A stretch of DNA of 49,185 nt from an uncultured Candidatus Saccharibacteria bacterium (GTDB lineage Bacteria > Patescibacteriota > Minisyncoccia > Phycocordibacterales > Phycocordibacteraceae): contig CAYMNZ010000001.1 of NCBI GenBank assembly GCA_964391975.1, forward strand, positions 81,280 through 130,464, written 5' to 3'. Shown here in pieces: positions 51-36,644 of the stretch (within the stretch, counting starts at the first letter, position 1; each line of letters opens with the position of its first letter). The position numbers and the translations under genes were made by a program. The notes under the pieces were generated by a model that was given only the letters and a program-made list of their open reading frames with translations, was not told the DNA's origin and ran no database searches.

Positions 51-422
51 ATGCAGGATATAGAAGTCCGGGAATCTCCTATAGAAGGGAAGGGAGTTTT
101 TGCACTGCGTGATTTTAAGAAAGGAGAGCGTGTCGTTGAGTGGGGTGAACGGAAAGTGCTTTCAGACTCAGAACTAGCCGGCCTGTCAGAAGCTGAAAGA
201 TCTCGTTACGTAAGCTTTAAAGACGGTAAGCACCTTCTTTCCAATGAGCCCGCGAGGTATGTGAATCATTCTTGTGATTCCAACACCAACCCAAAAGATA
301 ATGGGGATGTAGCCATTCGAGATATTAAAGCCGGAGAGGAGATAACCTCTACATATAGGGATGAGGGCGTATCTTGCAACTGTGGGTCGCTACACTGTAA
401 GGGCACTCTTGAAGGGTTCTAA
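51..422 (+). CDS. SET domain protein (putative lysine methyltransferase)
   Basis: GKGVFA N-terminal motif, RYVNHSCDSN, GEEITSTY, and post-SET CNCGSLHC. Confidence 0.9.
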   Translation: MQDIEVRESPIEGKGVFALRDFKKGERVVEWGERKVLSDSELAGLSEAERSRYVSFKDGKHLLSNEPARYVNHSCDSNTNPKDNGDVAIRDIKAGEEITSTYRDEGVSCNCGSLHCKGTLEGF

Positions 423-440
423 CATCGTTCCAAGCTACCT
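416..440 (+). repeat. att-like motif, copy 1 (GTTCTAACATCGTTCCAAG...)
   Basis: Resembles the copies at 15614, 30315 and 32061; overlaps the SET stop codon; minus strand reads VAWNDVRT. Confidence 0.45.
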
Positions 441-493
441 TTCCTTGCTAAAAAGCGTATATAACGTACAACAAGGTTTACTCATCGCTTAGC

Positions 494-4107: not shown

Positions 4108-4596
4108 ATGAAATTCGCATTCTCTAAGACCCGCCAGGGCCACATGAAGGGTTTCACCCTCATTGAGCTTCTCGTGGTGATCGCTATTATCGGCATTCTC
4201 TCATCCGTCGTGCTTGCTTCCCTCAACACCGCAAGGAACAAGGGAGCTGACACGGCAGTGAAGTCGAACCTCGCTGGTGCACGCGCACAGGCAGAGCTCT
4301 TCTACGATGCTAACGGCAACAGCTACGCTAACCTCTGTGGTACGACGGCAGTTGCTGGTGTGAAGACCATCAACTCTGCGGTCCTCGCAGCAGTCCAGGC
4401 TACGGGCGGCACCTCGATTGGTACCGGTCCTTCGACCGCAACCGCAGGTACCTGCAACGCATCGGCGACGGCATGGGGAGCGGAGGCAGCCCTTAAGAAC
4501 GGCACTGCTGGAGGCTACTACTGTGTCGACAGCACTGGTGCAGCAGCTACCTCGAGCAGCAGCATGCTCTCAGGTTCAACTGACTACGCTTGCTAA
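4108..4596 (+). CDS. Type IV pilin (probably the major pilin)
   Basis: KG|FTLIELLVVIAIIGIL N-methylation motif, C-terminal Cys pair, own terminator; start may be the internal Met near 4144. Confidence 0.9.
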   Translation: MKFAFSKTRQGHMKGFTLIELLVVIAIIGILSSVVLASLNTARNKGADTAVKSNLAGARAQAELFYDANGNSYANLCGTTAVAGVKTINSAVLAAVQATGGTSIGTGPSTATAGTCNASATAWGAEAALKNGTAGGYYCVDSTGAAATSSSSMLSGSTDYAC

Positions 4597-6601: not shown

Positions 6602-7185
6602 TGACGCCAAAGACCATGCGCGGGTATACCCTCCTCGAAATGATTGTTGCAGTCGGCATCTTCAGTGTGGTGATGTTGATTGTGACGGGTGCGTACCTTT
6701 CTCTCATTGGGCTTGATCGAGAACTCCGAGCAAGTACCTCGCTGGTGACGAACCTTTCGTTCGCGCTTGATAGTATGTCGCGCGGTATCCGCACCGGAAA
6801 TTCCTACGGCTGCGGTTCGACCGGCGGGGATCCGCTTAATCCTTCAGCGGGGACTAACGCTGTGTGTACCTCCTTCTCCTATTATGATGTGTCGCTTGCC
6901 GACAAGGTGACCTACAAGCGTAAAAACGACGGCACCATCGGGCGCTGCACGGGCACAGCAGTGTGTACCGATGCGTCAGCGATATCACTCACTGACCCGA
7001 GCATCACTATTGCCAATCCTAGTGGTCTCACGTTCTACGTTCGAGGCATCGGTACCACGGGCGCGGGAGCGAACGTGCAACCGCAGGTCACTTTTACGCT
7101 TCGCGGTACTATAAAGGGAGATAAGAGCCATACGCTGGACTTCTCAATTCAGACCAGCGCCACCCAGCGCCTTATAGAGATATGA
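6598..7185 (+). CDS. Minor pilin (PilW/GspJ-like)
   Basis: RG|YTLLEMIVAVGIF; ATGA overlap with the previous stop. Confidence 0.82.
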   Translation: MMTPKTMRGYTLLEMIVAVGIFSVVMLIVTGAYLSLIGLDRELRASTSLVTNLSFALDSMSRGIRTGNSYGCGSTGGDPLNPSAGTNAVCTSFSYYDVSLADKVTYKRKNDGTIGRCTGTAVCTDASAISLTDPSITIANPSGLTFYVRGIGTTGAGANVQPQVTFTLRGTIKGDKSHTLDFSIQTSATQRLIEI

Positions 7186-7663
7186 CCATGAAAGGATTCA
7201 CCCTCATCGAGACCCTGGTTGCCGTGACGGTGCTTACGCTTGCGGTGGCAGGTCCTTTTAATGCACTGCGCGGAGCACTCGTGAACTCCTATATCGCTCG
7301 CGATCAGCTAGTGGCCACCTCGCTTGCCCAAGAAGGCATTGAGTATATCCGTAGTGTCCGGGATGCTAATTACCTTGCAGGCTCTTCCTGGCTTACTGGG
7401 CTAGGCTCCTGCCAGCCAGGCCCTTGTGTGGTTGATACCGCTTTTGGGACCATAAGTGGCACAGTCGCTCCGCTTCGCCTTAGTACGGGCGGTCTCTATA
7501 GTTACGTGACGTCCACGGGGGATAAGGTGAGCATCTACACACGGACGGTGTCCATCAGCACGCTTGCAGGAGGAACTGAAGCGAAGGTGACGTCGAGCGT
7601 TTCTTGGATAACGCGCGGTGTGACCTACACGACGACGTTAACTGAGAATATCCACGATTGGCT

Positions 7664-14623: not shown

Positions 14624-14700
14624 GCTGATGTAGCTCAGGTAGTTAGAGCATGGGACTCATAAACCCAAGGTCGGAGGTGCAAGTCCTCCCATCAGCACCA
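14624..14700 (+). tRNA. tRNA with CAT anticodon (elongator Met or Ile2), CCA encoded
   Basis: GCTGATG/CATCAGC acceptor stem, GCTC/GAGC D-stem, CTCATAA loop, GGAGG-TGCAAGT-CCTCC T-arm. Confidence 0.88.
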
Positions 14701-14951
14701 TGGATACAACTACCCTCATCGGGGTCATCGGCGCGACCCTTCTTCTCCTGGCTTTCATAGGGAATGCCGTAGGGAAGATGGAGCACGATGGTACCGGGTA
14801 CATCATCATTAACCTCGTCGGCGGGGTCTTCCTCGTCTGGTATGCGTCACTCATCGGCTCATGGCCGTTTATCGTCATTGAGTCGGTCTGGGCCATTGTC
14901 GCGTTCCGGGGACTGTGGGAGAAGCTTGCCGGGGGAGGCAAAACCCGTTAG
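14700..14951 (+). CDS. Small membrane protein (CBU_0592-like)
   Basis: Three TM helices; IGVIGATLLLLAF, YIIINLVGG and PFIVIESVW pattern. Confidence 0.75.
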   Translation: MDTTTLIGVIGATLLLLAFIGNAVGKMEHDGTGYIIINLVGGVFLVWYASLIGSWPFIVIESVWAIVAFRGLWEKLAGGGKTR

Positions 14952-14972: not shown

Positions 14973-15046
14973 GCAGCGGTAGCTCAACTGGTTAGAGCAC
15001 CCGCCTGTCACGCGGGAGGTTGCGGGTTCAAGTCCCGTCCGCTGCG
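14973..15046 (+). tRNA. tRNA-Asp (GTC), CCA not encoded
   Basis: GCAGCGG/CCGCTGC acceptor stem, CCCGC-CTGTCAC-GCGGG anticodon arm, discriminator G. Confidence 0.95.
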
Positions 15047-15052
15047 CACTTG

Positions 15053-15086
15053 CACAAAGCCACCCATTTGGGTGGCTTTGTGTTTT
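15053..15086 (+). terminator. Intrinsic terminator after tRNA-Asp
   Basis: CACAAAGCCACCC-ATTT-GGGTGGCTTTGTG followed by TTTT. Confidence 0.85.
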
Positions 15087-15124
15087 CATCTAAATACCGC
15101 TTCAATTGATATATAGTCTAGATT

Positions 15125-15592
15125 ATGAAAACTAAATTCGTCATAGGAGCAGTACTTGTACTTGTGTTCATCGCTTTTCTCGTCATACAAAATGGAGAGC
15201 GCAGCATGAGTACACAGAACACAGTACCGGTTATCCCCCACGAAAATCCACTTATTCTCGAAGATATTGCCGACGTGTACGCGGTACAAAATACGAATGA
15301 CCTCCACGATCAATATCTGGGACTTAACGAGGTGATCGTAAGTAGGGTAGTGAGCGATCGCCTATTCTATGTTCATCAGGGTGACGAATCGCAGCAGGTC
15401 CTTGTGTACGACGGAGCTGATAGTCAGGGTAGTAGAGTGCTGAAGGCAGGCGATGAGATTGGATACATCCGTGGCACACTTGCCGTTTCCGGGAGCCTTA
15501 CCTTTGTCGAGGACGATGAGTCTTCTCAAGAAGAAATTGATTTTCTAAAGAAAGAACAATTCTTCTTAAGGGCTATCCCCGCGGAGGGATAG
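15125..15592 (+). CDS. Hypothetical membrane-anchored acidic protein (cargo at tRNA-Asp)
   Basis: N-terminal TM helix; AT-richer DNA; flanked by a direct repeat. Confidence 0.7.
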   Translation: MKTKFVIGAVLVLVFIAFLVIQNGERSMSTQNTVPVIPHENPLILEDIADVYAVQNTNDLHDQYLGLNEVIVSRVVSDRLFYVHQGDESQQVLVYDGADSQGSRVLKAGDEIGYIRGTLAVSGSLTFVEDDESSQEEIDFLKKEQFFLRAIPAEG

Positions 15593-15613
15593 AATCATTG
15601 TTTCTGTATTTCA

Positions 15614-15669
15614 GTTCCAACAACGTCCATTAGCCCGCGCACTTTCACAAGCCAACCATCTGGGTGGCT
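15614..15669 (+). repeat. att-like motif, copy 2, joined to a degenerate duplicate of the tRNA-Asp 3' end and terminator
   Basis: GTTCCAACAACGTCCA, then 15637-15669 matches 15044-15077 at 30 of 34 positions. Confidence 0.75.
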
Positions 15670-15682
15670 GAATATAGTCTTG

Positions 15683-29182: not shown

Positions 29183-29244
29183 TTGAAGGAAATCGGTTTT
29201 TCAAGTATCGTGCGTTCTCAAGGCGACTCCTGTCGCCTTGAAAT

Positions 29245-29315
29245 TGCGGGATCGTCTAATGGTAGGACGCGACCCTCTGGAGGTCGTTATCTAGGTTCGA
29301 GTCCTAGTCCCGCAG
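29245..29315 (+). tRNA. tRNA-Gln (CTG), full CCA not encoded
   Basis: TGCGGGA/TCCCGCA acceptor stem, CGACC-CTCTGGA-GGTCG anticodon arm, CTAGG-TTCGAGT-CCTAG T-arm. Confidence 0.95.
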
Positions 29316-29336
29316 CCGCCTTGCTACACTTCAGTT

Positions 29337-30314
29337 ATGGAAGTCTCTAGAGAAATTTTTGTTCCAGCCGTCTGCTCAACAGACGGGGCATGTGAACTCG
29401 TCCAGGATTCAATGAGGCTCGATATTCTGCACCATGAAAATGGTCAAACAGCAGAGGCGTACCCAATTCATCTTGAAGATGGGAAATTCTTCTCGGAAGT
29501 ATTTGGCGCGTCTTTTTCAGAAGTTGAAGAGTATCGGAAGCACATACTCAATACGGTACATTTGATTACGAGTTCCTTTACCGATGGCGCGCTTGCATAT
29601 GAGCAGATTGATGTGGTGGGGAAGCGCATACAGGAAATCGATGTGGAATTTGCAAAGCCGAAGATTGGGCGACCACTCGACATCATTCATCAGCAGTATG
29701 GCCCCAACCCCAATCATCCATACCGCAAGATAACTCTCATTCGCACTACAGTCCCGGTGCGTATGGAGGAAGGTATCAAGCGGTTCTTTTTTGAGAAGTT
29801 CCTCGTTGTATATTCATTCCTAGATGAAAACGGAATGCGCCGTTCGACCATAACCCCTATACACTCGCATCCCTATAATCATGAGGTCGTCTATTTCGTA
29901 AAACACGGTCCTGGCTCGAGAGCTGTTGAACGAGAGTATTTACCTACTGACAAATCAGGTACTCCATTCGTTTCTGCTGAAGGCGTATTCAATCCGGCTT
30001 TAATCAGTTCTGATGGATTGCTCTCATTGGAGAATCTGCAAACCCAATTCAAGAAGGAAGAAACACTTGAAGGCACAGATGTGCCCATCCCGCTTGAACC
30101 ATTCGAATCAGAGTTCCTCTCTCGTAATCCGCACTTTATATCTCAAACTGATGGTCTCTTTCGACCCCACCAAGTGACGATCCATGACTCGGAGGAAGAA
30201 GGAGGGACACTCTACTACGCCTTCAATAACTACTGGGGACCGCTCGGCCGCGTCATCGTATACAACGATTCAGGCGAACCCCTCGTCTGGCGTCACAAGG
30301 AATGGGACAAATAG
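29337..30314 (+). CDS. Hypothetical protein with a cupin-like metal-binding motif
   Basis: TPIHSHPYNHE (HxHxxxxE) and a distal RPHQV histidine. Confidence 0.6.
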   Translation: MEVSREIFVPAVCSTDGACELVQDSMRLDILHHENGQTAEAYPIHLEDGKFFSEVFGASFSEVEEYRKHILNTVHLITSSFTDGALAYEQIDVVGKRIQEIDVEFAKPKIGRPLDIIHQQYGPNPNHPYRKITLIRTTVPVRMEEGIKRFFFEKFLVVYSFLDENGMRRSTITPIHSHPYNHEVVYFVKHGPGSRAVEREYLPTDKSGTPFVSAEGVFNPALISSDGLLSLENLQTQFKKEETLEGTDVPIPLEPFESEFLSRNPHFISQTDGLFRPHQVTIHDSEEEGGTLYYAFNNYWGPLGRVIVYNDSGEPLVWRHKEWDK

Positions 30315-30349
30315 GTTCGAATATCGTCCCAGACAGCCAGCAAAGTCGA
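30315..30349 (+). repeat. att-like motif, copy 3, containing the tRNA-Gln terminal CAGCC
   Basis: 30 of 35 nt identical to 32061-32095; begins right after the stop codon. Confidence 0.8.
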
Positions 30350-30469
30350 AAATCAGCGTTTTTGATGATAAAAAGACTAGTTTTCTCAACTATTGCATTC
30401 CAATAAGAGAGGAGCAGAATATGGGGTAGAAGTACAATACTCCAATTATTCCTTATTAATCACTCGAAC

Positions 30470-30859
30470 ATGGCAAAGCAGCGCGTCTTCATTAGCTTCG
30501 ATTACGACAACGATAGCGATATAAAAATGTTACTGGCTGGCCAGGCGAAATTAACGGACTCCCCTTTCGATTTTACTGATGCTTCTGTGAAAGAAGCCAT
30601 GTCAGGAGATTGGAAAGCAAAAGTAAAGCGTCGACTAGGAAATTGTGACCAGATGGCTGTTCTTTGTGGTGCGTCTACACACACAGCAAGTGGAGTATCT
30701 GCGGAGCTTGAAATCGCTCAAGAACTGGGCCTACCTTATTTTTTGCTGGAAGGACGGTCGGCTAAGACTTGTACTAAGCCAAAATCTGCTCGAACTACCG
30801 ACAAAATGTATTCCTGGACTTGGCCTAATCTTAAATCACTTATAGGAGGAGGAAGGTAA
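30470..30859 (+). CDS. TIR-like protein (ThsB/DUF1863 type)
   Basis: RVFISFDYDND, putative catalytic Glu in GVSAELEIA, WTWPNL C-terminus. Confidence 0.85.
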   Translation: MAKQRVFISFDYDNDSDIKMLLAGQAKLTDSPFDFTDASVKEAMSGDWKAKVKRRLGNCDQMAVLCGASTHTASGVSAELEIAQELGLPYFLLEGRSAKTCTKPKSARTTDKMYSWTWPNLKSLIGGGR

Positions 30860-31848
30860 TGAGAAAGGCACTTATAATCGGCATTGATAAGTACGCTAGT
30901 TCTCCTTTAACTGGTTGTGAAAATGATGCTGTTGCGATTGACAATACCTTGCAAACAAATGGTGACGGCTCACCAAACTTCACGACTAAACTAATCACTA
31001 GTGACAATGTAAATGTTACAAGCGAAGTTATACATAATGCACTTAAGGAATTATTTTCAGGTGACGCAGAGACTGCACTCCTCTATTTTGCCGGTCACGG
31101 AATAATAAGCCCGTCAACGAACGCTGGTTACATTGTTAGCCAAGATGGGAAGAATGGAAGCTGGGGTGTTTCCTTAAATGAAATTCTAGGAATGGCAAAT
31201 AAAGCCTATCCGAAGATTAATTCTACGGTGATAATTTTTGATAGCTGCAATTCTGGTTATACGGGTGAGGTTGAGGCTCTTAATAATGAGAATATTTCAG
31301 CAATAGGAACAGGTGTAACCATTCTTACTGCCTGCCATAGAGACGGTGGGGCAGCAGAGGCCAATGGGCACGGATTATTTACCCAGATACTATTAGACGG
31401 TCTTGCAGGTGCATCTGCCGATATCTTGGGACGTATTACTCCAGCTTCCGTTTATTCGCATATTGACCAGACTCTTGGTGCATGGGAACAAAGGCCTATC
31501 TATAAGGCAAATGTTCAAACTTTCGTTACATTGAGAAATGTAGCCCCGAAAATACCGCTTGAGGCATTACGTCGCTTAACAACATATTTTCCGACACCAA
31601 CAGAGCAGTTTCAGCTTGACCCCTCTTTTGAGCCTGACAGGGAGAATATTCCAGAGAAATTGAGGCATATTCCACAGGATGAAAATAATGTCCGTATCTT
31701 CAAAGAATTACAGGACTTCAATCGTTATGGACTAGTAGTCCCGGTTGATGCTGAGCATATGTATTATGCAGCCATTGAATCTAAATCCTGCAGGCTAACA
31801 GCTTTAGGAGCTCACTATAGAAATCTTGCGGAAAAAAATCGTATCTAA
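30859..31848 (+). CDS. Caspase-like protease (peptidase C14), putative Thoeris type IV effector
   Basis: RKALIIGIDKY, LTGCENDA, YFAGHG (His), FDSCNSG (Cys), GLFT; TAATG-coupled to the TIR gene. Confidence 0.9.
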   Translation: MRKALIIGIDKYASSPLTGCENDAVAIDNTLQTNGDGSPNFTTKLITSDNVNVTSEVIHNALKELFSGDAETALLYFAGHGIISPSTNAGYIVSQDGKNGSWGVSLNEILGMANKAYPKINSTVIIFDSCNSGYTGEVEALNNENISAIGTGVTILTACHRDGGAAEANGHGLFTQILLDGLAGASADILGRITPASVYSHIDQTLGAWEQRPIYKANVQTFVTLRNVAPKIPLEALRRLTTYFPTPTEQFQLDPSFEPDRENIPEKLRHIPQDENNVRIFKELQDFNRYGLVVPVDAEHMYYAAIESKSCRLTALGAHYRNLAEKNRI

Positions 31849-31856
31849 TTATTAAA

Positions 31857-31880
31857 ACGACCTCGGAGTTCCGAGGTCGT
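31857..31880 (+). terminator. Hairpin after the caspase gene (terminator-like)
   Basis: ACGACCTCGG-AGTT-CCGAGGTCGT; weak U tail. Confidence 0.55.
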
Positions 31881-31888
31881 ACTTAGTT

Positions 31889-31936
31889 AGATGGAGCCTT
31901 GTATGTTGCCTTGTGGCAACATACAAGGCTCCATCT
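31889..31936. repeat. Perfect 22-bp inverted repeat with a 4-nt loop
   Basis: AGATGGAGCCTTGTATGTTGCC-TTGT-GGCAACATACAAGGCTCCATCT. Confidence 0.95.
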
Positions 31937-32060
31937 TAAACGTCAAGAAAATAGAGACACAAATCTGTGCGCCAAGCAGCAACCAAGCTAATCTTGAGGT
32001 AAATGAGGTGCTAGAAAGCATAAATCTTCTGTTACAGTATATCAAACGTAGGCAAAAAAA

Positions 32061-32095
32061 GTTCCAACATCGTCCAAGACAGCCAGCCAAGTTGA
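32061..32095 (+). repeat. att-like motif, copy 4, containing the tRNA-Gln terminal CAGCC
   Basis: GTTCCAACATCGTCCAAGACAGCCAGCCAAGTTGA; direct repeat of 30315-30349. Confidence 0.8.
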
Positions 32096-32383
32096 GTGGG
32101 GTTCTGATGCAGGAGATACGTTGATTTTGTGGAAGTGGCTACTGGCCGTTAGAACTTCGCTGATGCAAAGCAACTCTTTATATTTCCTACGAGTGGCGGA
32201 TGACTGGGTATCATCGTAAGTACACGAAAGCCAATACGTGTCTACGGAGTGCCCAAAACTAGGACGGGAGATGGTTGGTTTGCTTGATGTCCCCACACTC
32301 TTGCACGATTTGCTTGTAGGTGTAATATACGGGTCATATAGTAATTATAAGCCGTACCCGTTAATTATTTAGCCTGAATACCT

Positions 32384-32596
32384 ATGGACAAGCAAGAACG
32401 CTTCAAGAAACTCGCAACGACTCGTACAAACGAGGTTCTTTATCGTTTGAAGGTCCTAGGCAACTGCTCTAACCGCCAACTGTATGCCTACGAGGAGAAG
32501 GACGTGGACAAGATTTTCTCTGAAATAGAGAAGAAGGTTAAGGAAGCGAAGGCAAAGTTCAATTTCCCTAAGAAGGGTGAGAAATTCAAACTCTAA
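32384..32596 (+). CDS. Small basic helical protein (possible regulator)
   Basis: 70 aa, first gene of a tightly packed four-gene operon. Confidence 0.75.
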   Translation: MDKQERFKKLATTRTNEVLYRLKVLGNCSNRQLYAYEEKDVDKIFSEIEKKVKEAKAKFNFPKKGEKFKL

Positions 32597-32601
32597 TACT
32601 T

Positions 32602-33222
32602 ATGGAAACGAACACACACGGCCTCAGTAGATTGGAAAAACTCATCCTCTTCCTTTACGAGAAGGGGAATGGCCAGCCTGTTAAGGTTCGCTACGAAGAT
32701 ATCGTAGTCGGAGTCTTCAAGAAGTATCCACACGACTTCCATCTCAAAGACTATCCAGAGTATCCAGATTCTGGAGACATGATTCACAAGCCACTCTACG
32801 ACGCTAAGAAAAAGGGCTATCTCAATGCCGCTAATAAAGTATTTGCTCTCACTGACCGTGGCCTCGACTACGCGAAACAACTTGCTGAAAGAGGCACTGG
32901 TAATAAGGAGACTGTTTCTAAAGACCGCCTCTCACGCAACACGACTATTGAGTTCGCACGAATCAAGGGCCTTGAAGGGTTTGAGTTGTTCGTAAAAGGA
33001 CAGGGACACAAACTCACCGACAACGACTTCTATGACTATCTTGGTGTGACGGTTCGTACCCAGAAGAATGCTGTGATAGGTCGTATGAACACGCTCGATG
33101 CCGTCCAAAAGGAACTAAAGAATCACGACAACAATCCCACCGCTGTGAAGGTAGTGGAATATCACGACTTCCTTGTGGCCAAGAACCAGAGCGTAGTCAG
33201 TTTCTTCACTTCTAAGAATTAA
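32602..33222 (+). CDS. Hypothetical protein with a probable winged-helix N-terminus
   Basis: Helix pattern ending in KKKGYL...FALTDRGLDYA, a wing-like signature. Confidence 0.65.
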   Translation: METNTHGLSRLEKLILFLYEKGNGQPVKVRYEDIVVGVFKKYPHDFHLKDYPEYPDSGDMIHKPLYDAKKKGYLNAANKVFALTDRGLDYAKQLAERGTGNKETVSKDRLSRNTTIEFARIKGLEGFELFVKGQGHKLTDNDFYDYLGVTVRTQKNAVIGRMNTLDAVQKELKNHDNNPTAVKVVEYHDFLVAKNQSVVSFFTSKN

Positions 33223-33224
33223 CT

Positions 33225-35342
33225 ATGGCTACCAACAAAATACTCGCAATCAAAGAGGTCGCAAACGAATTCGACGATAACATCCTCGATATTTTCGGGG
33301 CAGAATTCAAATTCGACCATGTAAAGGGAATGGCGGAGTGGCTTAAGAATTCCGTTGACGCATATCGTCGTAATGACGTTCCCGCTTCAGAACACACCAT
33401 CGTGTTTCGATTCCTAGACCAAGGGATGACTTTCCCGACTATCGAGTGCATAGACTTCATCGGAATGACGAAGGTTGATATTGAGAAGTCTTTCAAACGC
33501 TGGGGAGACCCAAATGCCGCTAAGCGAGGCAATAAGACCGACAAGAATAAGAAGATGTTTGGTGGCCACGGAAACGGAGGCAAGTTCTACATGCGCCAGA
33601 TGTTCAAGCAGTCGCGCTTCATAACCTACAAGGACGGAATGCTTAATGTGTTCGGTTTTAGTGAGAATCGGAAGTACGGCTTTGTGCCTGGATATGAGGA
33701 CAAGAAAATGACTCCAAAGCAAGCACTTGAGTACGCAGAATTGACTGGCCTCATTCCTGACGAACTCAAAAAGAAAATCCTAAATCACGAGACAGGCTTT
33801 ACGTCCGTTCAAGGTATTGGTCCAGATAGTGTGAAGGGAAAAATAAACGTTAAACGAGAGATGGAACGCTTCAAGAACTATCCTCAGTCTCGACGCATCC
33901 TTCTCCGAAGCCAAGTCTCCGTTACATACAACGACGGTGTTCTGTACCCAAGTCTCAAGCCAGACGAGCTTGACCCGTTGGAGAAATTCAAGGACCCGCG
34001 AATAATTCAGATTCCAGAGAAACTCACGACTCAATCTGGTTCACAGAAAGTGACTGTCGTGATGGTTACTCAGAAGTATCCGCCAGGCAATCTCGTCCTC
34101 AAGACCTCGTCGGAGGCTATGACAAGGGGAACCATATTGGGTGAACTCAACCGCATAGACATACTTGGAGAGGTGGGTGTAATCGGCTCGTACTCCTTGT
34201 ACGAACTGGGAGTTAAAGGTTTCCCTGCGGCTGGCTTCGTCTATGGAGAATTTGGACCTGCAGTTGAAAATGACGCGTCTATTCTTGAAGACCCTGACAA
34301 TGATTGTGTTACGAATGACCGATCAAAACTGTCGGTCAACGACACGACGAAGGCACTTCTTGAGTGGATAGCCACTGAGGTTGATAAACTCGCTGACGAA
34401 ATAACGGCAATCGAACGGGAGAAGCAAAAAGCAAACCAGAAGGAAATCACGTCAAAGTTCAATGACGTTCTCAACTCGTGGAAGAACAAGCACATGAGCA
34501 AAATCATGTCTGACTTCTTTGGGACTGGTGCAGAAGGAAAGGGAGGGGGTGGAGCAAATCCAACACCAGAACACCAGATACTTCCGCCACCTAACGGATT
34601 CGACTTCAAGTATCCACGAGCAGAAATCGAAATGGGAAAGAAGGCAAACATGACACTTAAGGTGTCTGTCCCGAACGTACTTCCTATTGGTGGAACGGTC
34701 TTTGTTTCTTCAAGTTCCGACAAAGTGTTCTTGGAGACTGAAAAGTATGTCGTTAAGTCCGACCTCATTAAGACGGATGAAAAGGGACAGGATATTGCCT
34801 TCATCAATGTCAGTGTCGAAGGTGTGGAAATCGGTGCAGAGGCAACTATTACCGCCACTGACAAGAAGCGCACCGCAACAATGACTGTTGTCGTTATTGC
34901 AGAGAAGGAAAGTCATAAGGGTAAGCAGTTCCCACAAGTGTTGCTTTCCAGCCACGATGCAGACCCTCTCGGTTCTGGTGGTGAGACAGTCGTTCTTGGA
35001 GAGCGCGACCCTATCGTCTACCAGCGACCACAGGACTTGCGATCCAATATCTATTGGATAAACACTTCAAGCCCGATGGCCTCGAAGATATATGACAAGT
35101 TCCGTTTCGATTCTCCTCAATGGCGAACCTATCTCTTTGACCGCTACGTGGACATCTTTGTTAAAGAGGCTGTGCATGACTTGGAAAAGAAGGACTTACA
35201 GAACTTCACGGCTGACTCTGTTGACCGACGCATAGAAGAAGTCGTGCGTAAGGTCCATCAGAGCGCAAACGAAGACTTGGAAGACTTCCTTTTCGACTCG
35301 ACCTACATAGTTCCTGAAACGGAAAAGTCCGAAAAGGATTAA
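33225..35342 (+). CDS. GHKL (MORC/Hsp90-like) ATPase
   Basis: EWLKNSVDA (N box), IDFIGMT (G1-like), GGHGNGGK (G2), TGFT; then a coiled coil, a Gly linker and a beta-rich region. Confidence 0.8.
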   Translation: MATNKILAIKEVANEFDDNILDIFGAEFKFDHVKGMAEWLKNSVDAYRRNDVPASEHTIVFRFLDQGMTFPTIECIDFIGMTKVDIEKSFKRWGDPNAAKRGNKTDKNKKMFGGHGNGGKFYMRQMFKQSRFITYKDGMLNVFGFSENRKYGFVPGYEDKKMTPKQALEYAELTGLIPDELKKKILNHETGFTSVQGIGPDSVKGKINVKREMERFKNYPQSRRILLRSQVSVTYNDGVLYPSLKPDELDPLEKFKDPRIIQIPEKLTTQSGSQKVTVVMVTQKYPPGNLVLKTSSEAMTRGTILGELNRIDILGEVGVIGSYSLYELGVKGFPAAGFVYGEFGPAVENDASILEDPDNDCVTNDRSKLSVNDTTKALLEWIATEVDKLADEITAIEREKQKANQKEITSKFNDVLNSWKNKHMSKIMSDFFGTGAEGKGGGGANPTPEHQILPPPNGFDFKYPRAEIEMGKKANMTLKVSVPNVLPIGGTVFVSSSSDKVFLETEKYVVKSDLIKTDEKGQDIAFINVSVEGVEIGAEATITATDKKRTATMTVVVIAEKESHKGKQFPQVLLSSHDADPLGSGGETVVLGERDPIVYQRPQDLRSNIYWINTSSPMASKIYDKFRFDSPQWRTYLFDRYVDIFVKEAVHDLEKKDLQNFTADSVDRRIEEVVRKVHQSANEDLEDFLFDSTYIVPETEKSEKD

Positions 35343-35346
35343 CGCA

Positions 35347-36642
35347 ATGACTACGCCCCCAATTACTGAAGGAAACGAAGTTGATTCCACAACTGTCCTT
35401 CCAGAATTGGGAGGAGATGATGACGTATTGGATACGTTGGCTAGTCTCTTTGGTGTATCCAAAGAAGCAGTCGAGGAGAAGTCCCGAAGACACGACATCG
35501 TAGGTATTCGACAGATGATTATGTACCTCCTTCGTGAGTACGGAGGAATGTCGTTCCCTTCGATTGGCCGCCTCATAGGTAATAGAGACCACACAACGGT
35601 CATGTACACCTATACGAAGGTAAAACAAGAGGTTGCAGACGACCCTTCTATTCTTGACGGGGTTGCTGGTCCAATCGTTGTAGCAAAAGCAATCAAAGTC
35701 CGGAAACAGCAACTTGAGGAAGAACTCAGGGGTATGAACGCCACGCTTTATGCGGAAGCAAGGGCCACGATTCAGTCTGCACGTCTTAAACGCAGGGAGC
35801 CACGCGTAAGACCTATACCAGAACGAGATACAAAAATCCTTGAGATGTATCGAGAGGGACTAACTCTACAGAACATTTCAGATCTTGTTGGGATTACGCG
35901 TGAACGTGTACGCCAAGTCGTACTCAGTACGATTCGCACCATAGCCATAAATGAATCAATCACGAAGGGTATCGTCATGGACATTGATGTACTCGTTGAG
36001 GAGGAGAATAAAAAACGTGACGCGGCAAAGGAATCGAAGAAGTCAGTTAAGGAAAAGAAGGAGAAACCAGAGGGCCCAAAACGTTGGAGTTGGTACTACG
36101 ATGTGTGTCAGGAATGTGGTTCGAGTACCTTTCCTCATAAACGAAAAGGCATCTGTCAGCGATGTCTAGGAGCATTTAGTGGTCCTGTTCGAGAGAAGAT
36201 TATCAATGACCACGATAACAAGTGTGCTGTTTGTGGTATCACTCGTCCAGAAGCCATAGGCACTCAAGGAAGGGACTTGTACATCATGAAAGACCAGACA
36301 GTGCTTTGTCGTAAGCACTTCCTAGAATCTTCTGGTCAACGAATGGGGGCTTACAAAAACCACGAATGGAGTCGTTTTCATGCTGCATGCAAGAAGTGTG
36401 GAACAACTACCGTATCTCACGCTAGTCGCGGGTTCTGTATGGATTGCAACCCTCTATTAACGAGTGAACAGCGTGAACATATAATAGTGAAGAAAGGGAG
36501 TGTTTGTAGTCGCTGCGGTATCGCACGAGAAGATGCTAAAAAGGAATACGATGCTGACTTTCGAGTTACGAAGACTGACGAAACTCTTTGTATGAAGTGT
36601 TTTTCGGAATACGCACGAGGCAACTTCAAGAAACCAGCCTAG
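35347..36642 (+). CDS. Fusion protein: DnaA domain IV HTH + sigma70 region-4 HTH + duplicated Zn-finger modules
   Basis: RQMIMYLLRE..SFPSIGRLIGNRDHTTVMY; TLQNISDLVGITRERVRQ; multiple CxxC pairs. Confidence 0.8.
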   Translation: MTTPPITEGNEVDSTTVLPELGGDDDVLDTLASLFGVSKEAVEEKSRRHDIVGIRQMIMYLLREYGGMSFPSIGRLIGNRDHTTVMYTYTKVKQEVADDPSILDGVAGPIVVAKAIKVRKQQLEEELRGMNATLYAEARATIQSARLKRREPRVRPIPERDTKILEMYREGLTLQNISDLVGITRERVRQVVLSTIRTIAINESITKGIVMDIDVLVEEENKKRDAAKESKKSVKEKKEKPEGPKRWSWYYDVCQECGSSTFPHKRKGICQRCLGAFSGPVREKIINDHDNKCAVCGITRPEAIGTQGRDLYIMKDQTVLCRKHFLESSGQRMGAYKNHEWSRFHAACKKCGTTTVSHASRGFCMDCNPLLTSEQREHIIVKKGSVCSRCGIAREDAKKEYDADFRVTKTDETLCMKCFSEYARGNFKKPA

Positions 36643-36644
36643 GC

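Follow-up and report, generated by a model that had tools for sequence, protein, structure and literature searches.

The window analysed here, 49,185 nucleotides of contig CAYMNZ010000001.1 from an uncultured Candidatus Saccharibacteria bacterium, raises the question of how small accessory-gene units come to be stacked behind tRNA genes. Downstream of its tRNA-Gln(ctg) gene, successive units end in copies of a short repeat, here called M, which an earlier note on this DNA had taken for attR-type junctions of a recombinase that targets several tRNA 3' ends. The question reaches beyond this locus, as the genomes of the Patescibacteria (candidate phyla radiation, CPR) are very small and descriptions of how they maintain a flexible gene pool are few. 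The answer favoured here, at a probability of roughly 0.6, is that M is an element-side (attP/attR-type) half-site, that the tRNA end and its orphan fragments (here called T) are the attB-type half, and that a family of large serine recombinases (LSRs) encoded beside tRNA-Gln or T is the likely enzyme.

The repeats at positions 30315 and 32061 agree at 30 of 35 positions by direct reading, and repeat finding returned them as a 41-nt family (D8) at 83% identity. With the pattern GTTCNAAYATCGTCC and up to two mismatches, the window holds the same four copies that the earlier note had listed (416, 15614, 30315 and 32061), against an expectation of 0.51; four copies were not reached in any of 100 shuffles. 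At three mismatches the signal is gone (20 observed, 18.1 expected), and therefore only these four window copies are considered real. The window shuffles, combined with reversed-pattern controls in relatives, exclude a chance origin. Across the genome of the window (G000; 772 kb in 9 contigs, C1 and C4 among them), 16 copies were found, 15 of them on the plus strand of C1, with unrelated flanks, the consensus (G)GTTCCAACATCGTCCCAGACAGCCAGC and, usually, a stop codon 0-5 nt upstream. M was also present in 11 of 41 relatives (23 copies in G020, 12 in G021, 6 in G022, and 4 each in G009 and G018, among others), against three single matches of the reversed control across the 41 genomes. As a side observation, the cumulative GC skew of C1 peaks near 345 kb; M lies on the plus strand up to 314 kb, and past the skew peak there are one plus-strand copy (396 kb, linked to tRNA-Asn) and one minus-strand copy (472 kb), so that its orientation mostly follows the direction of replication.

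The 35-nt repeat is part of a longer site of about 36 nt, reaching from -6 to +29. Over 314 non-redundant copies, conservation sets in at -6 (A, 0.81), continues with AAAG and ends at about +29, GCCAGCAA, with that of positions 1-20 partly an ascertainment effect, being fixed by how the copies were collected. Each copy joins a head, GTTCCAACATCG, present in all copies, to an imperfect copy of the last 15-16 nt of the target tRNA; compared with the tRNAs of the same genomes, the tail copies the 3' strand of the T-stem, the 3' strand of the acceptor stem and the discriminator. Taking M tails and T fragments together, the tRNA-end copies span the last 13-17 nt of the tRNA. Three types of tail are seen in G000: a Gln type, TCCCAGAC[T/A]GCCAGC, an Asp type (at 15614), TCCATTAGCCCGCGCA, and an Asn type, TCCACCCAGCGGAGCA. 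The anticipated use of several tRNA 3' ends is thus borne out, with Gln twice, Asp and Asn in this genome. The similar minus-strand peptides that had been remarked on turned out to be merely the translated motif: [WLM][DN]D[VI][RG]T occurs in one of 2467 G000 frames of at least 100 aa, and that frame is the copy at 32061. Coding constraint on M was likewise rejected, since conservation is highest at M positions 3, 6, 9, 12 and 15, where the LAVWDDVGT frame has its third-codon positions, which argues that M is maintained as DNA and not as coding sequence. A conserved 32-nt module, TCTRGACAGAACSTANCAYANRTTGCAnAAAG, immediately adjoins M on its left side in 19 cassettes, one at L025:6037-6116 and the others at 18 further loci; the opposite-strand open reading frames (ORFs) of these cassettes are unrelated, most modules are preceded by CCTCC (GGAGG on the other strand), and the module may be an outward promoter or leader.

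The association with tRNA ends that a scan of this genome and its relatives had been expected to reveal was found. In G000, 15 of the 16 copies lie downstream, and in the same orientation, of tRNA-Asp, tRNA-Gln(ctg), tRNA-Gln(ttg), tRNA-Asn or an orphan T fragment; the sole copy without such a start is that of a SET-domain unit at window position 416, which has no T site to its left. Orphan T fragments of the type GTTCGAATCCTGGGCGGCCAGC stand at 41179, 44263, 144252, 181262, 313052 and 473404 (minus strand) of C1, and those of congeners read GTTCGAT[A/C]CCTAGTCT[G/C]CCAGCAAT and directly follow the stop codon of a core gene. In other metagenome-assembled genomes (MAGs), a strict T match within 2.5 kb was found upstream of 7 of 20 arrays and downstream of 0 of 20. 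Five M-negative congeners yielded only real tRNA-Gln genes under the T pattern, whereas orphans number six in G000 and about four in each of G020 and G021. Separately, partial duplicates of the tRNA-Gln 3' end were noted 26-56 nt past the tRNA in two congeners (G071:C2:247040-247194 and G041:C6:10113-10266).

The position of the exchange can be read from an empty and an occupied form of one site. Between xth and xer, G021 carries the empty site ...GCTTCGATCCCTAGTC TGCCA ACTA, also read as ...CCCTAGTC TGCCA ACTA, in which CTA is the xer stop codon. At the matching place, locus L085 holds two cassettes, the left junction consisting of the T arm, TGCCA and GCTACTG and the right one of the M head, TGCCA and ACTA. 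Covariation was assessed in 58 site pairs sharing upstream sequence and 53 sharing downstream sequence: identity at position 21 tracks the upstream partner (0.52 vs 0.38; random 0.27), and identity at positions 26-29 tracks the downstream partner (0.75/0.91/0.79/0.64 vs 0.55/0.71/0.47/0.55). Combined, the empty and occupied pair and the covariation place the crossover in M positions 22-25, at the acceptor end of the tRNA, so that an insertion leaves the tRNA intact. Cassettes have been shuffled at this site, the head travelling with the upstream cassette and the bases past the crossover with the downstream sequence, as the earlier note's attR-type junctions would have it; M copies accordingly read, as far as sequence can tell, as an element half-site joined to whatever lay past the crossover. 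The crossover sequence itself would be TGCCA in congeners, CAGCC at the tRNA-Gln of the window and GCGCA at tRNA-Asp.

Presence and absence of an island at the same tRNA was also seen between strains. In assembled contigs, the only material considered here, the window stretch was found in ten runs at a share of 0.95-1.00 and in an eleventh at 0.29. One contig of run X6 joins position 29317 to 37809 and skips 8491 bases; its shorter side of 30 nt is the expected remnant of a graph branch with 31-letter words, a Logan word length of 31 being assumed. This contig has a depth of 28.9, against 13.2 for the 8.6-kb contig of the island, and flanking contigs of similar depth carry single-nucleotide polymorphisms. 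The joining contig therefore indicates a co-occurring strain without the 8.5-kb island, the whole of which is an insertion; it represents a presence/absence polymorphism, not excision. As it resumes at 37809, a distance of 1 nt is left between tRNA-Gln and the stop codon of a convergent pseudouridine synthase gene. Together with the G021 site, this contig supplies empty sites of the kind that the earlier note had proposed to look for. Apparent joints from 30341-30344 to 32052-32061, that is, between the first and second M copies of the island, were discarded as motif cross-matches with sides of 21-27 nt. In run X10, 29244-30139 (tRNA-Gln and unit 1) recurs without any difference on a contig of depth 41.4 whose upstream context differs, with 511 bases skipped, a DUF1761 gene among them; unit 1 with its tRNA-Gln may thus sit in a second genomic background.

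Two explanations that need no dedicated enzyme can be weighed against these junctions. If M and T were portable homology blocks, cassettes could be exchanged by homologous recombination after DNA uptake, and this would agree with the lack of a recombinase in cis in the arrays (a phmmer search with Xer found the housekeeping xer only, and LSR-like frames occur in few of the loci) and with a site of 30-36 nt that is nearly identical between distant MAGs. We consider it quite improbable, given that the sequence common to T and M at hybrid junctions amounts to no more than about 5-10 nt and is not long enough for RecA-type exchange, that the breakpoint is restricted to 4-5 nt, that direct repeats would be expected to be deleted rather than accumulated, and that a head fused to tails matching different tRNAs is not accounted for. 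The other explanation, that M is a regulatory or RNA-level element of the accessory genes such as a terminator-proximal or 5' untranslated region signal, draws on the closeness of M to stop codons, on its distance of about 45-80 nt from the next start codon in G000 where the next gene is on the same strand, and on the adjoining 32-nt module with its promoter-like features. The odds for it appear very small: an intrinsic terminator stands just before M in many cassettes, 63 of 207 cassette ORFs lie on the other strand, Rfam has no match at M, and tRNA-end hybrids, empty next to occupied sites and strain-specific islands are unexpected for a regulatory motif.

The distal ends of the two sites point to a type of enzyme. 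Before TGCCA, M has 20 nt and T has 15 nt, and both start with GGTTCNAAY, the tRNA T-loop sequence; counted from the CA core, this motif spans positions 16-24 of M and positions 11-19 of T, an offset of 5 bp. In the sections of Rutherford et al. 2013 (PMC3783163) drawn on here, the attP half-site of LSRs carries a 9-bp zinc-ribbon domain (ZD) motif at positions 16-24, and in attB this motif is moved 5 bp toward the centre (T19-C11). In both cases, then, a common distal motif of about 9 bp lies closer to the crossover by 5 bp in the host site than in the element site, and half-site lengths of about 19 and 24 bp agree as well (PMC3783163). On this comparison, the left half of T resembles an LSR attB half-site and that of M an attP half-site, and because the shift is the hallmark of LSR attP and attB, the likely enzyme is an LSR. 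For comparison, an LSR crosses over at a 2-bp core, and the crossover of M was localised to the four positions given above.

No such enzyme is encoded close by. The window lacks an integrase, as had been noted before, and the only tyrosine recombinase of G000, a single PF00589 match on contig C4, is XerA-type (248.8 bits, cut-off 220). G000 has no match for Resolvase, Y1_Tnp, rve, RVT_1, TnpB, IS110 or DDE_Tnp_1 and no serine recombinase; its units are therefore recombinase-less and could move only in trans. Array loci contained no tyrosine recombinase except the housekeeping xer in L085, and none was found in 70 metagenome loci. A recombinase hidden among the cassettes was sought by clustering 668 neighbouring ORFs and rejected, the recurrent families being flanking core genes only; additionally, no recombinase is among the 25 most frequent Pfam families of the 150 largest cassette ORFs, beyond which there are 56 further families.

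The cell's only tyrosine recombinase is itself a conceivable driver of such a cassette-and-site system, in the manner of elements exploiting Xer at dif (integrative mobile elements exploiting Xer, IMEX, and pdif modules). An XerA-type protein is the only recombinase family detected in G000, the only recombinase in the M-rich genomes that lack an LSR and the only tyrosine recombinase detected in five other M-bearing genomes (G009, G018, G020, G021 and G022), and the xer stop codon is abutted by an M copy in L085 and by a T fragment in G021. Against this, Xer occurs in 92 of 101 genomes of the genus and M in a minority (11 of 41), with T orphans only alongside M, and a xer-adjacent site was found in just 2 of 34 xer loci, plus two dubious relics; not being conserved, adjacency to xer was ruled out as a cassette platform. 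A dif-like site consists of two 11-bp arms around a 6-bp spacer. M lacks this 11-6-11 dyad, and we know of no counterpart in Xer sites of the 5-bp offset between M and T. A loose probe of G000 for a dif-like site gave one match with 8 mismatches and no ATAA-N6-TTAT dyad, which says little either way. Overall, Xer is an unlikely driver that still carries some weight as the sole recombinase of those LSR-free genomes.

An LSR as the enzyme, the reading favoured here, finds candidates among the relatives. In the genus of the window, Resolvase-domain matches were obtained in 63 of 101 genomes, mostly in frames of 440-630 aa. Of the 16 frames whose 3' end lay within the examined locus, seven end inside a convergent tRNA, three of them in tRNA-Thr, two in tRNA-Ala and one each in tRNA-Gln and tRNA-Leu, and an eighth ends 21 nt away from a convergent tRNA-Phe. 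The single LSR of G021 was tried as the tRNA-Gln enzyme and rejected, as it ends in tRNA-Trp instead. Further LSR genes end in tRNA-Gln in G413 and G551 and in a T fragment in L321, and the reading frame that crosses CAG in these three genes is the frame in which M reads LAVWDDVGT. In G413, a genome of another family, tRNA-Gln(ctg) is followed on the opposite strand by a 514-aa serine recombinase whose frame runs through the tRNA, then by restriction-modification-like genes, a helix-turn-helix (HTH) gene and a tyrosine integrase gene, and finally by five M-type sites (one a 2-mismatch variant) in tRNA orientation; about 11 kb separate the minus-strand LSR from these sites. Modules homologous to this one were seen in four further genomes, where they end in tRNA-Gln, Ala, Glu and His. 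Five elements within the taxonomic class (L369-L372 and L363) were also observed to share an HTH protein (113-133 aa), a tyrosine integrase (about 370-383 aa) and the tRNA-ending LSR.

Within 183 M-bearing loci (1.10 Mb), LSR-like frames were found in two, L321 and L314, in each case lying towards T and on the opposite strand. L321 presents tRNA-Gln(ttg) at 8-81, a T fragment at 98-120, an LSR frame (translation read by eye) ending in ...IMLGD with its stop codon at 108-110, and then six M copies; L314 has the same geometry and partially shows the layout of an LSR beside attL. LSR genes thus stand in the expected position in three loci, counting G413. As a separate observation on L321:8-120, the tRNA-Gln(ttg) there has an unusual T-loop, GGATCGTACC, and the canonical orphan tRNA-Gln 3' fragment lies 16 nt further. 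The earlier proposal of a recombinase whose attP lies inside its own C-terminal coding end held in one part, in that LSR genes ending in tRNA 3' ends exist; the peptide predicted for it was found in none of 1485 frames of at least 250 aa in all loci examined.

If an LSR is the enzyme, its gene would lie on the opposite strand, adjoining the tRNA or T and ending inside it. Such an element would integrate at the tRNA end and leave the tRNA intact, placing the recombinase gene beside the tRNA and the cargo-proximal end, made up of a gene, its stop codon and M, on the far side. Later excision or loss of the recombinase module would leave the gene with its M and make the tRNA end usable again. Repeated rounds, together with excision via a more distal M (accretion or cis-mobilisation), would stack and reshuffle small units, and such a cycle may still be running at present. 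It follows the logic that sections of the literature propose for the ssrA islands of Dehalococcoides (PMC3146451) and for the accretion of cis-mobilisable elements (CIMEs; PMC5704250).

Several points weigh against an LSR and this cycle. LSR att sites consist of two half-sites of imperfect dyad symmetry around a central dinucleotide, whereas only the left half-site is recognisable in M and T. From one copy to the next, the right halves show no relationship, with no conservation past about +30, and M shows no dyad symmetry and no inverted partner, although canonical LSR sites have two recognisable half-sites. By our estimate, two LSR-like frames in 183 loci are no enrichment over the genus-wide LSR frequency; the evidence is therefore positional and the argument depends on geometry in three loci. 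Three M-bearing genomes, the M-rich G000 and G020 as well as G018 with its four copies, have no Resolvase-domain match. An LSR does not normally act on attL and attR unless a directionality factor is present, and repeated use of a tRNA end therefore requires that the right half-site matter little. An LSR does not account for how orphan T fragments arose at non-tRNA loci, the assembled contigs contained no circles or excision junctions, and the right end of the tRNA-Gln island is merely a decayed site, GGTTCATGCTTACC followed by CTACAG, where a proper M is missing.

A one-sided recombination code would go further: one half-site would be enough, with GGTTCNAAY, the universal tRNA T-loop sequence, recognised by the zinc-ribbon domain of a single LSR family, and each integration would restore a usable T and leave a usable M. 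We hold this only tentatively and consider it doubtful. Were it true, the tRNA ends of Patescibacteria would be reversible, integron-like capture platforms for single-gene cassettes, and altering the site tail would retarget the same enzyme family between tRNAs (Gln, Asp, Asn and others).

The arrays themselves are small and variable. Congeners have arrays of up to 10 units, and there are up to 10 loci per 0.77-Mb genome. The arrays occupy common chromosomal hot spots, two of which follow an M23-peptidase-like gene and a DNA polymerase III tau/tRNA-Gln locus, and the comparison of cargo between relatives that the earlier note had called for showed that content at these hot spots differs between genomes. 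Between consecutive M copies, 236 distinct cassettes were delimited, with a median of 549 nt (range 49-2678) and usually one gene; 144 of 207 cassette ORFs are on the same strand as M and 63 on the opposite strand, and in many cassettes M is immediately preceded by an intrinsic terminator. Pfam families found in the 150 largest of these ORFs include NUDIX (11), HAD (5), GNAT (4) and DUF218 (3), and recurrent small opposite-strand ORFs have no family. Defence genes are absent from the 25 most frequent families mentioned above; the TIR-caspase pair and methylase module of the window are therefore not typical cargo, and the idea that the system delivers defence genes gives way to a cargo of mostly small enzymes.

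The distribution of M is patchy. Its exact 20-mer was found in at least 118 stretches of genome_contigs and at least 118 of metagenome_contigs, and the titles listed are mostly of Patescibacteria, Paceibacterota or Parcubacteria MAGs. In an even sample of the phylum, 38 of 401 genomes (a tally that takes in G270, flagged unpublished and used for no other result) have a match at one mismatch or fewer; about 30 genomes match the reversed control too, so that single matches in this sample are noise. More than two copies occur only in G413 (5) besides G000 (13). A phylum-wide spread would thus be an over-reading, only G413 standing out above noise. An 18-mer of M recurs in 34 IMG/VR stretches, all in one conserved high-GC prophage gene, and the alphaproteobacterial matches (13 among the 80 genome matches listed; 18-20-mer, Rhodobacterales-type genomes) fall in the same gene. 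Since the flanks of that gene are conserved on both sides, the 18-20-mer identity is an unrelated coincidence, and a viral origin of M was ruled out.

The closest parallel is provided by the ssrA islands of Dehalococcoides. As described in the sections of McMurdie et al. 2011 (PMC3146451) drawn on here, these islands stand in tandem behind a small RNA gene and have its 3' end, or repeats of it, as their boundaries, with a conserved non-target motif immediately before each repeat and a serine recombinase of about 540 aa on the reverse strand adjoining attL; units without the integration module are read as cis-mobilisable elements. M arrays share the units bounded by a target 3' end and repeats and the non-target motif before each repeat. 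The reverse-strand LSR by attL is absent from the window and G000, and was seen only in the relatives G413, L321 and, partially, L314. The targets are tRNA-Gln, tRNA-Asp, tRNA-Asn and orphan tRNA-Gln fragments at many loci, as opposed to a single ssrA gene; the crossover lies in the acceptor end instead of the T-loop; the units are far smaller; and many host genomes are without any recombinase. The system is therefore a Patescibacterial form of serine-recombinase island stacking, reduced in size and spread over multiple loci, and not a new category. The novelty in kind implied by the earlier note is not upheld, as the ssrA islands work in this way (PMC3146451). Its interpretation is partly supported and was right in kind, namely on attR-type junctions, tRNA anchors, recombinase-less stacks and a recombinase gene end overlapping the att site.

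CIMEs offer a second comparison. According to the sections of Guedon et al. 2017 (PMC5704250) drawn on here, they have lost their integration genes and kept their att sites, lie in tandem at the end of a target gene and can be mobilised in cis or trans. M-array units likewise lack integration genes, keep att-type sites and stand in tandem at a target gene end. The CIMEs described there are decayed integrative and conjugative or integrative and mobilisable elements that measure several kb, have tyrosine integrases and repeat the tRNA end exactly (PMC5704250), whereas the units here are single-gene and have a dedicated head with a diverged tRNA tail.

The comparison with integrons, made in the earlier note for tandem integrase-less units, holds for the tandem, recombinase-less organisation and fails on site structure. 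Like integrons and clusters of attC sites lacking an integron integrase (CALINs), M arrays have small, mostly one-gene cassettes, diverse cargo and a recombination site just after the stop codon, and the GNAT and NUDIX genes among the cargo appear similar to those carried by chromosomal integrons. An attC site measures 55-140 nt and has R''/L''-L'/R' inverted repeats, whereas M is 30-36 nt, asymmetric and without attC-type inverted repeats. An attC-like hairpin at M was ruled out, there being no excess complementarity to the head within 120 nt of 299 sites compared with a scrambled head (7.09 vs 7.08 upstream, 7.14 vs 7.09 downstream). M arrays further differ in lacking IntI, in having about 30% of ORFs on the opposite strand and in the terminators of their own that many cassettes possess. 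The tyrosine recombinase of G000 scored 135.7 bits against TIGR02249, the test for integron integrases (cut-off 265), and lies on another contig than the arrays.

In the literature searched, no description of motif M or of cassette arrays in Patescibacteria was found. M marks entry points of accessory genes and offers a sequence handle for the flexible genome in thousands of MAGs, and the arrays point to a recombinase family as the candidate enzyme. If the half-site reading is true, this would be a natural example of serine integrases with reprogrammable targets, and it would explain ordered stacks of foreign genes in recombinase-free genomes, including the TIR-caspase pair and the methylase module of the window.

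Table 1. Coordinates of the M sites, their anchors and the associated units in the window.
Feature	Position	Strand	Remarks
tRNA-Gln(ctg)	29245-29317	+	ARAGORN and Rfam
Putative attB-type site T	29295-29317	+	Last ~23 nt of tRNA-Gln, GGTTCGAGTCCTAGTCCCGCAGCC; island anchor
Unit 1	29318-30314	+	Single ORF 29337-30314, 325 aa; stop codon abuts M1
M1	30309-30349	+	Head GTTCGAATATCG + tail TCCCAGACAGCCAGC; putative attR/attP-type half-site
Unit 2	30350-32054	+	TIR, caspase, two hairpins
ThsB-like TIR, unit 2	30470-30859	+	
Caspase, unit 2	30859-31848	+	
Terminator-like hairpin, unit 2	31860-31882		
M2	32055-32095	+	GTTCCAACATCGTCCAAGACAGCCAGCC
Unit 3, low GC	32096-37795		Five ORFs
Degenerate right-end site of island	37796-37823	+	GGTTCATGCTTACC then CTACAGCCCCAGCG
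tRNA-Asp	14973-15047	+	ARAGORN and Rfam; anchors one-gene unit
tRNA-Asp unit	15048-15613	+	ORF 15125-15592, 155 aa, no family
Asp-type M	15614-15670	+	Head GTTCCAACAACG + TCCATTAGCCCGCGCA, then diverged tRNA-Asp trailer/terminator copy
Variant M	416-445	+	GTTCTAACATCGTTCCAAGCTACC; overlaps stop codon of SET-domain gene (51-422)

Within the window (Table 1), the tRNA-Gln island (29318-37808) appears to comprise three units, the last with a decayed site, with one further unit at tRNA-Asp and the SET-domain gene as another; GC content drops from about 0.54 to 0.42-0.47 across 29.3-38 kb. The ORF of unit 1 had been described as cupin-like, an assignment that could not be reproduced, as it has no match in Pfam, NCBIfam or PADLOC and no usable Atlas match. 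The TIR and caspase genes of unit 2 were recovered as announced, the TIR being ThsB-type, and a perfect hairpin with a 21-bp stem (31890-31937) was noted between the caspase gene and M2. Unit 3 encodes proteins of 70 and 206 aa without a family match, a 705-aa protein that is GHKL (HATPase_c_3)-like by Atlas features only, a 431-aa protein with DnaA_C HTH and sigma70 r4 domains and, on the minus strand, a C5 DNA methylase; the module (32384-37658) looks like one of a defence or restriction-modification type.

The tRNA-Asp unit opens with a terminator hairpin resembling the resident one, and the M copy that closes it continues into GCGCA and a diverged copy of the tRNA-Asp terminator. Both the hairpin at the start of the unit and the resident trailer after its M are expected if the unit arose beside a tRNA-Asp elsewhere. 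Finally, a repeat family (D2) at 4141-4165, 6613-6637, 7185-7209 and 14697-14721 encodes ATG AAA GGN TTC ACC CTC ATC, or MKGFTLI, which we take to be a prepilin-type N-terminus; read in this way, the repeats suggest several pilin-like genes in the first 15 kb of the window.

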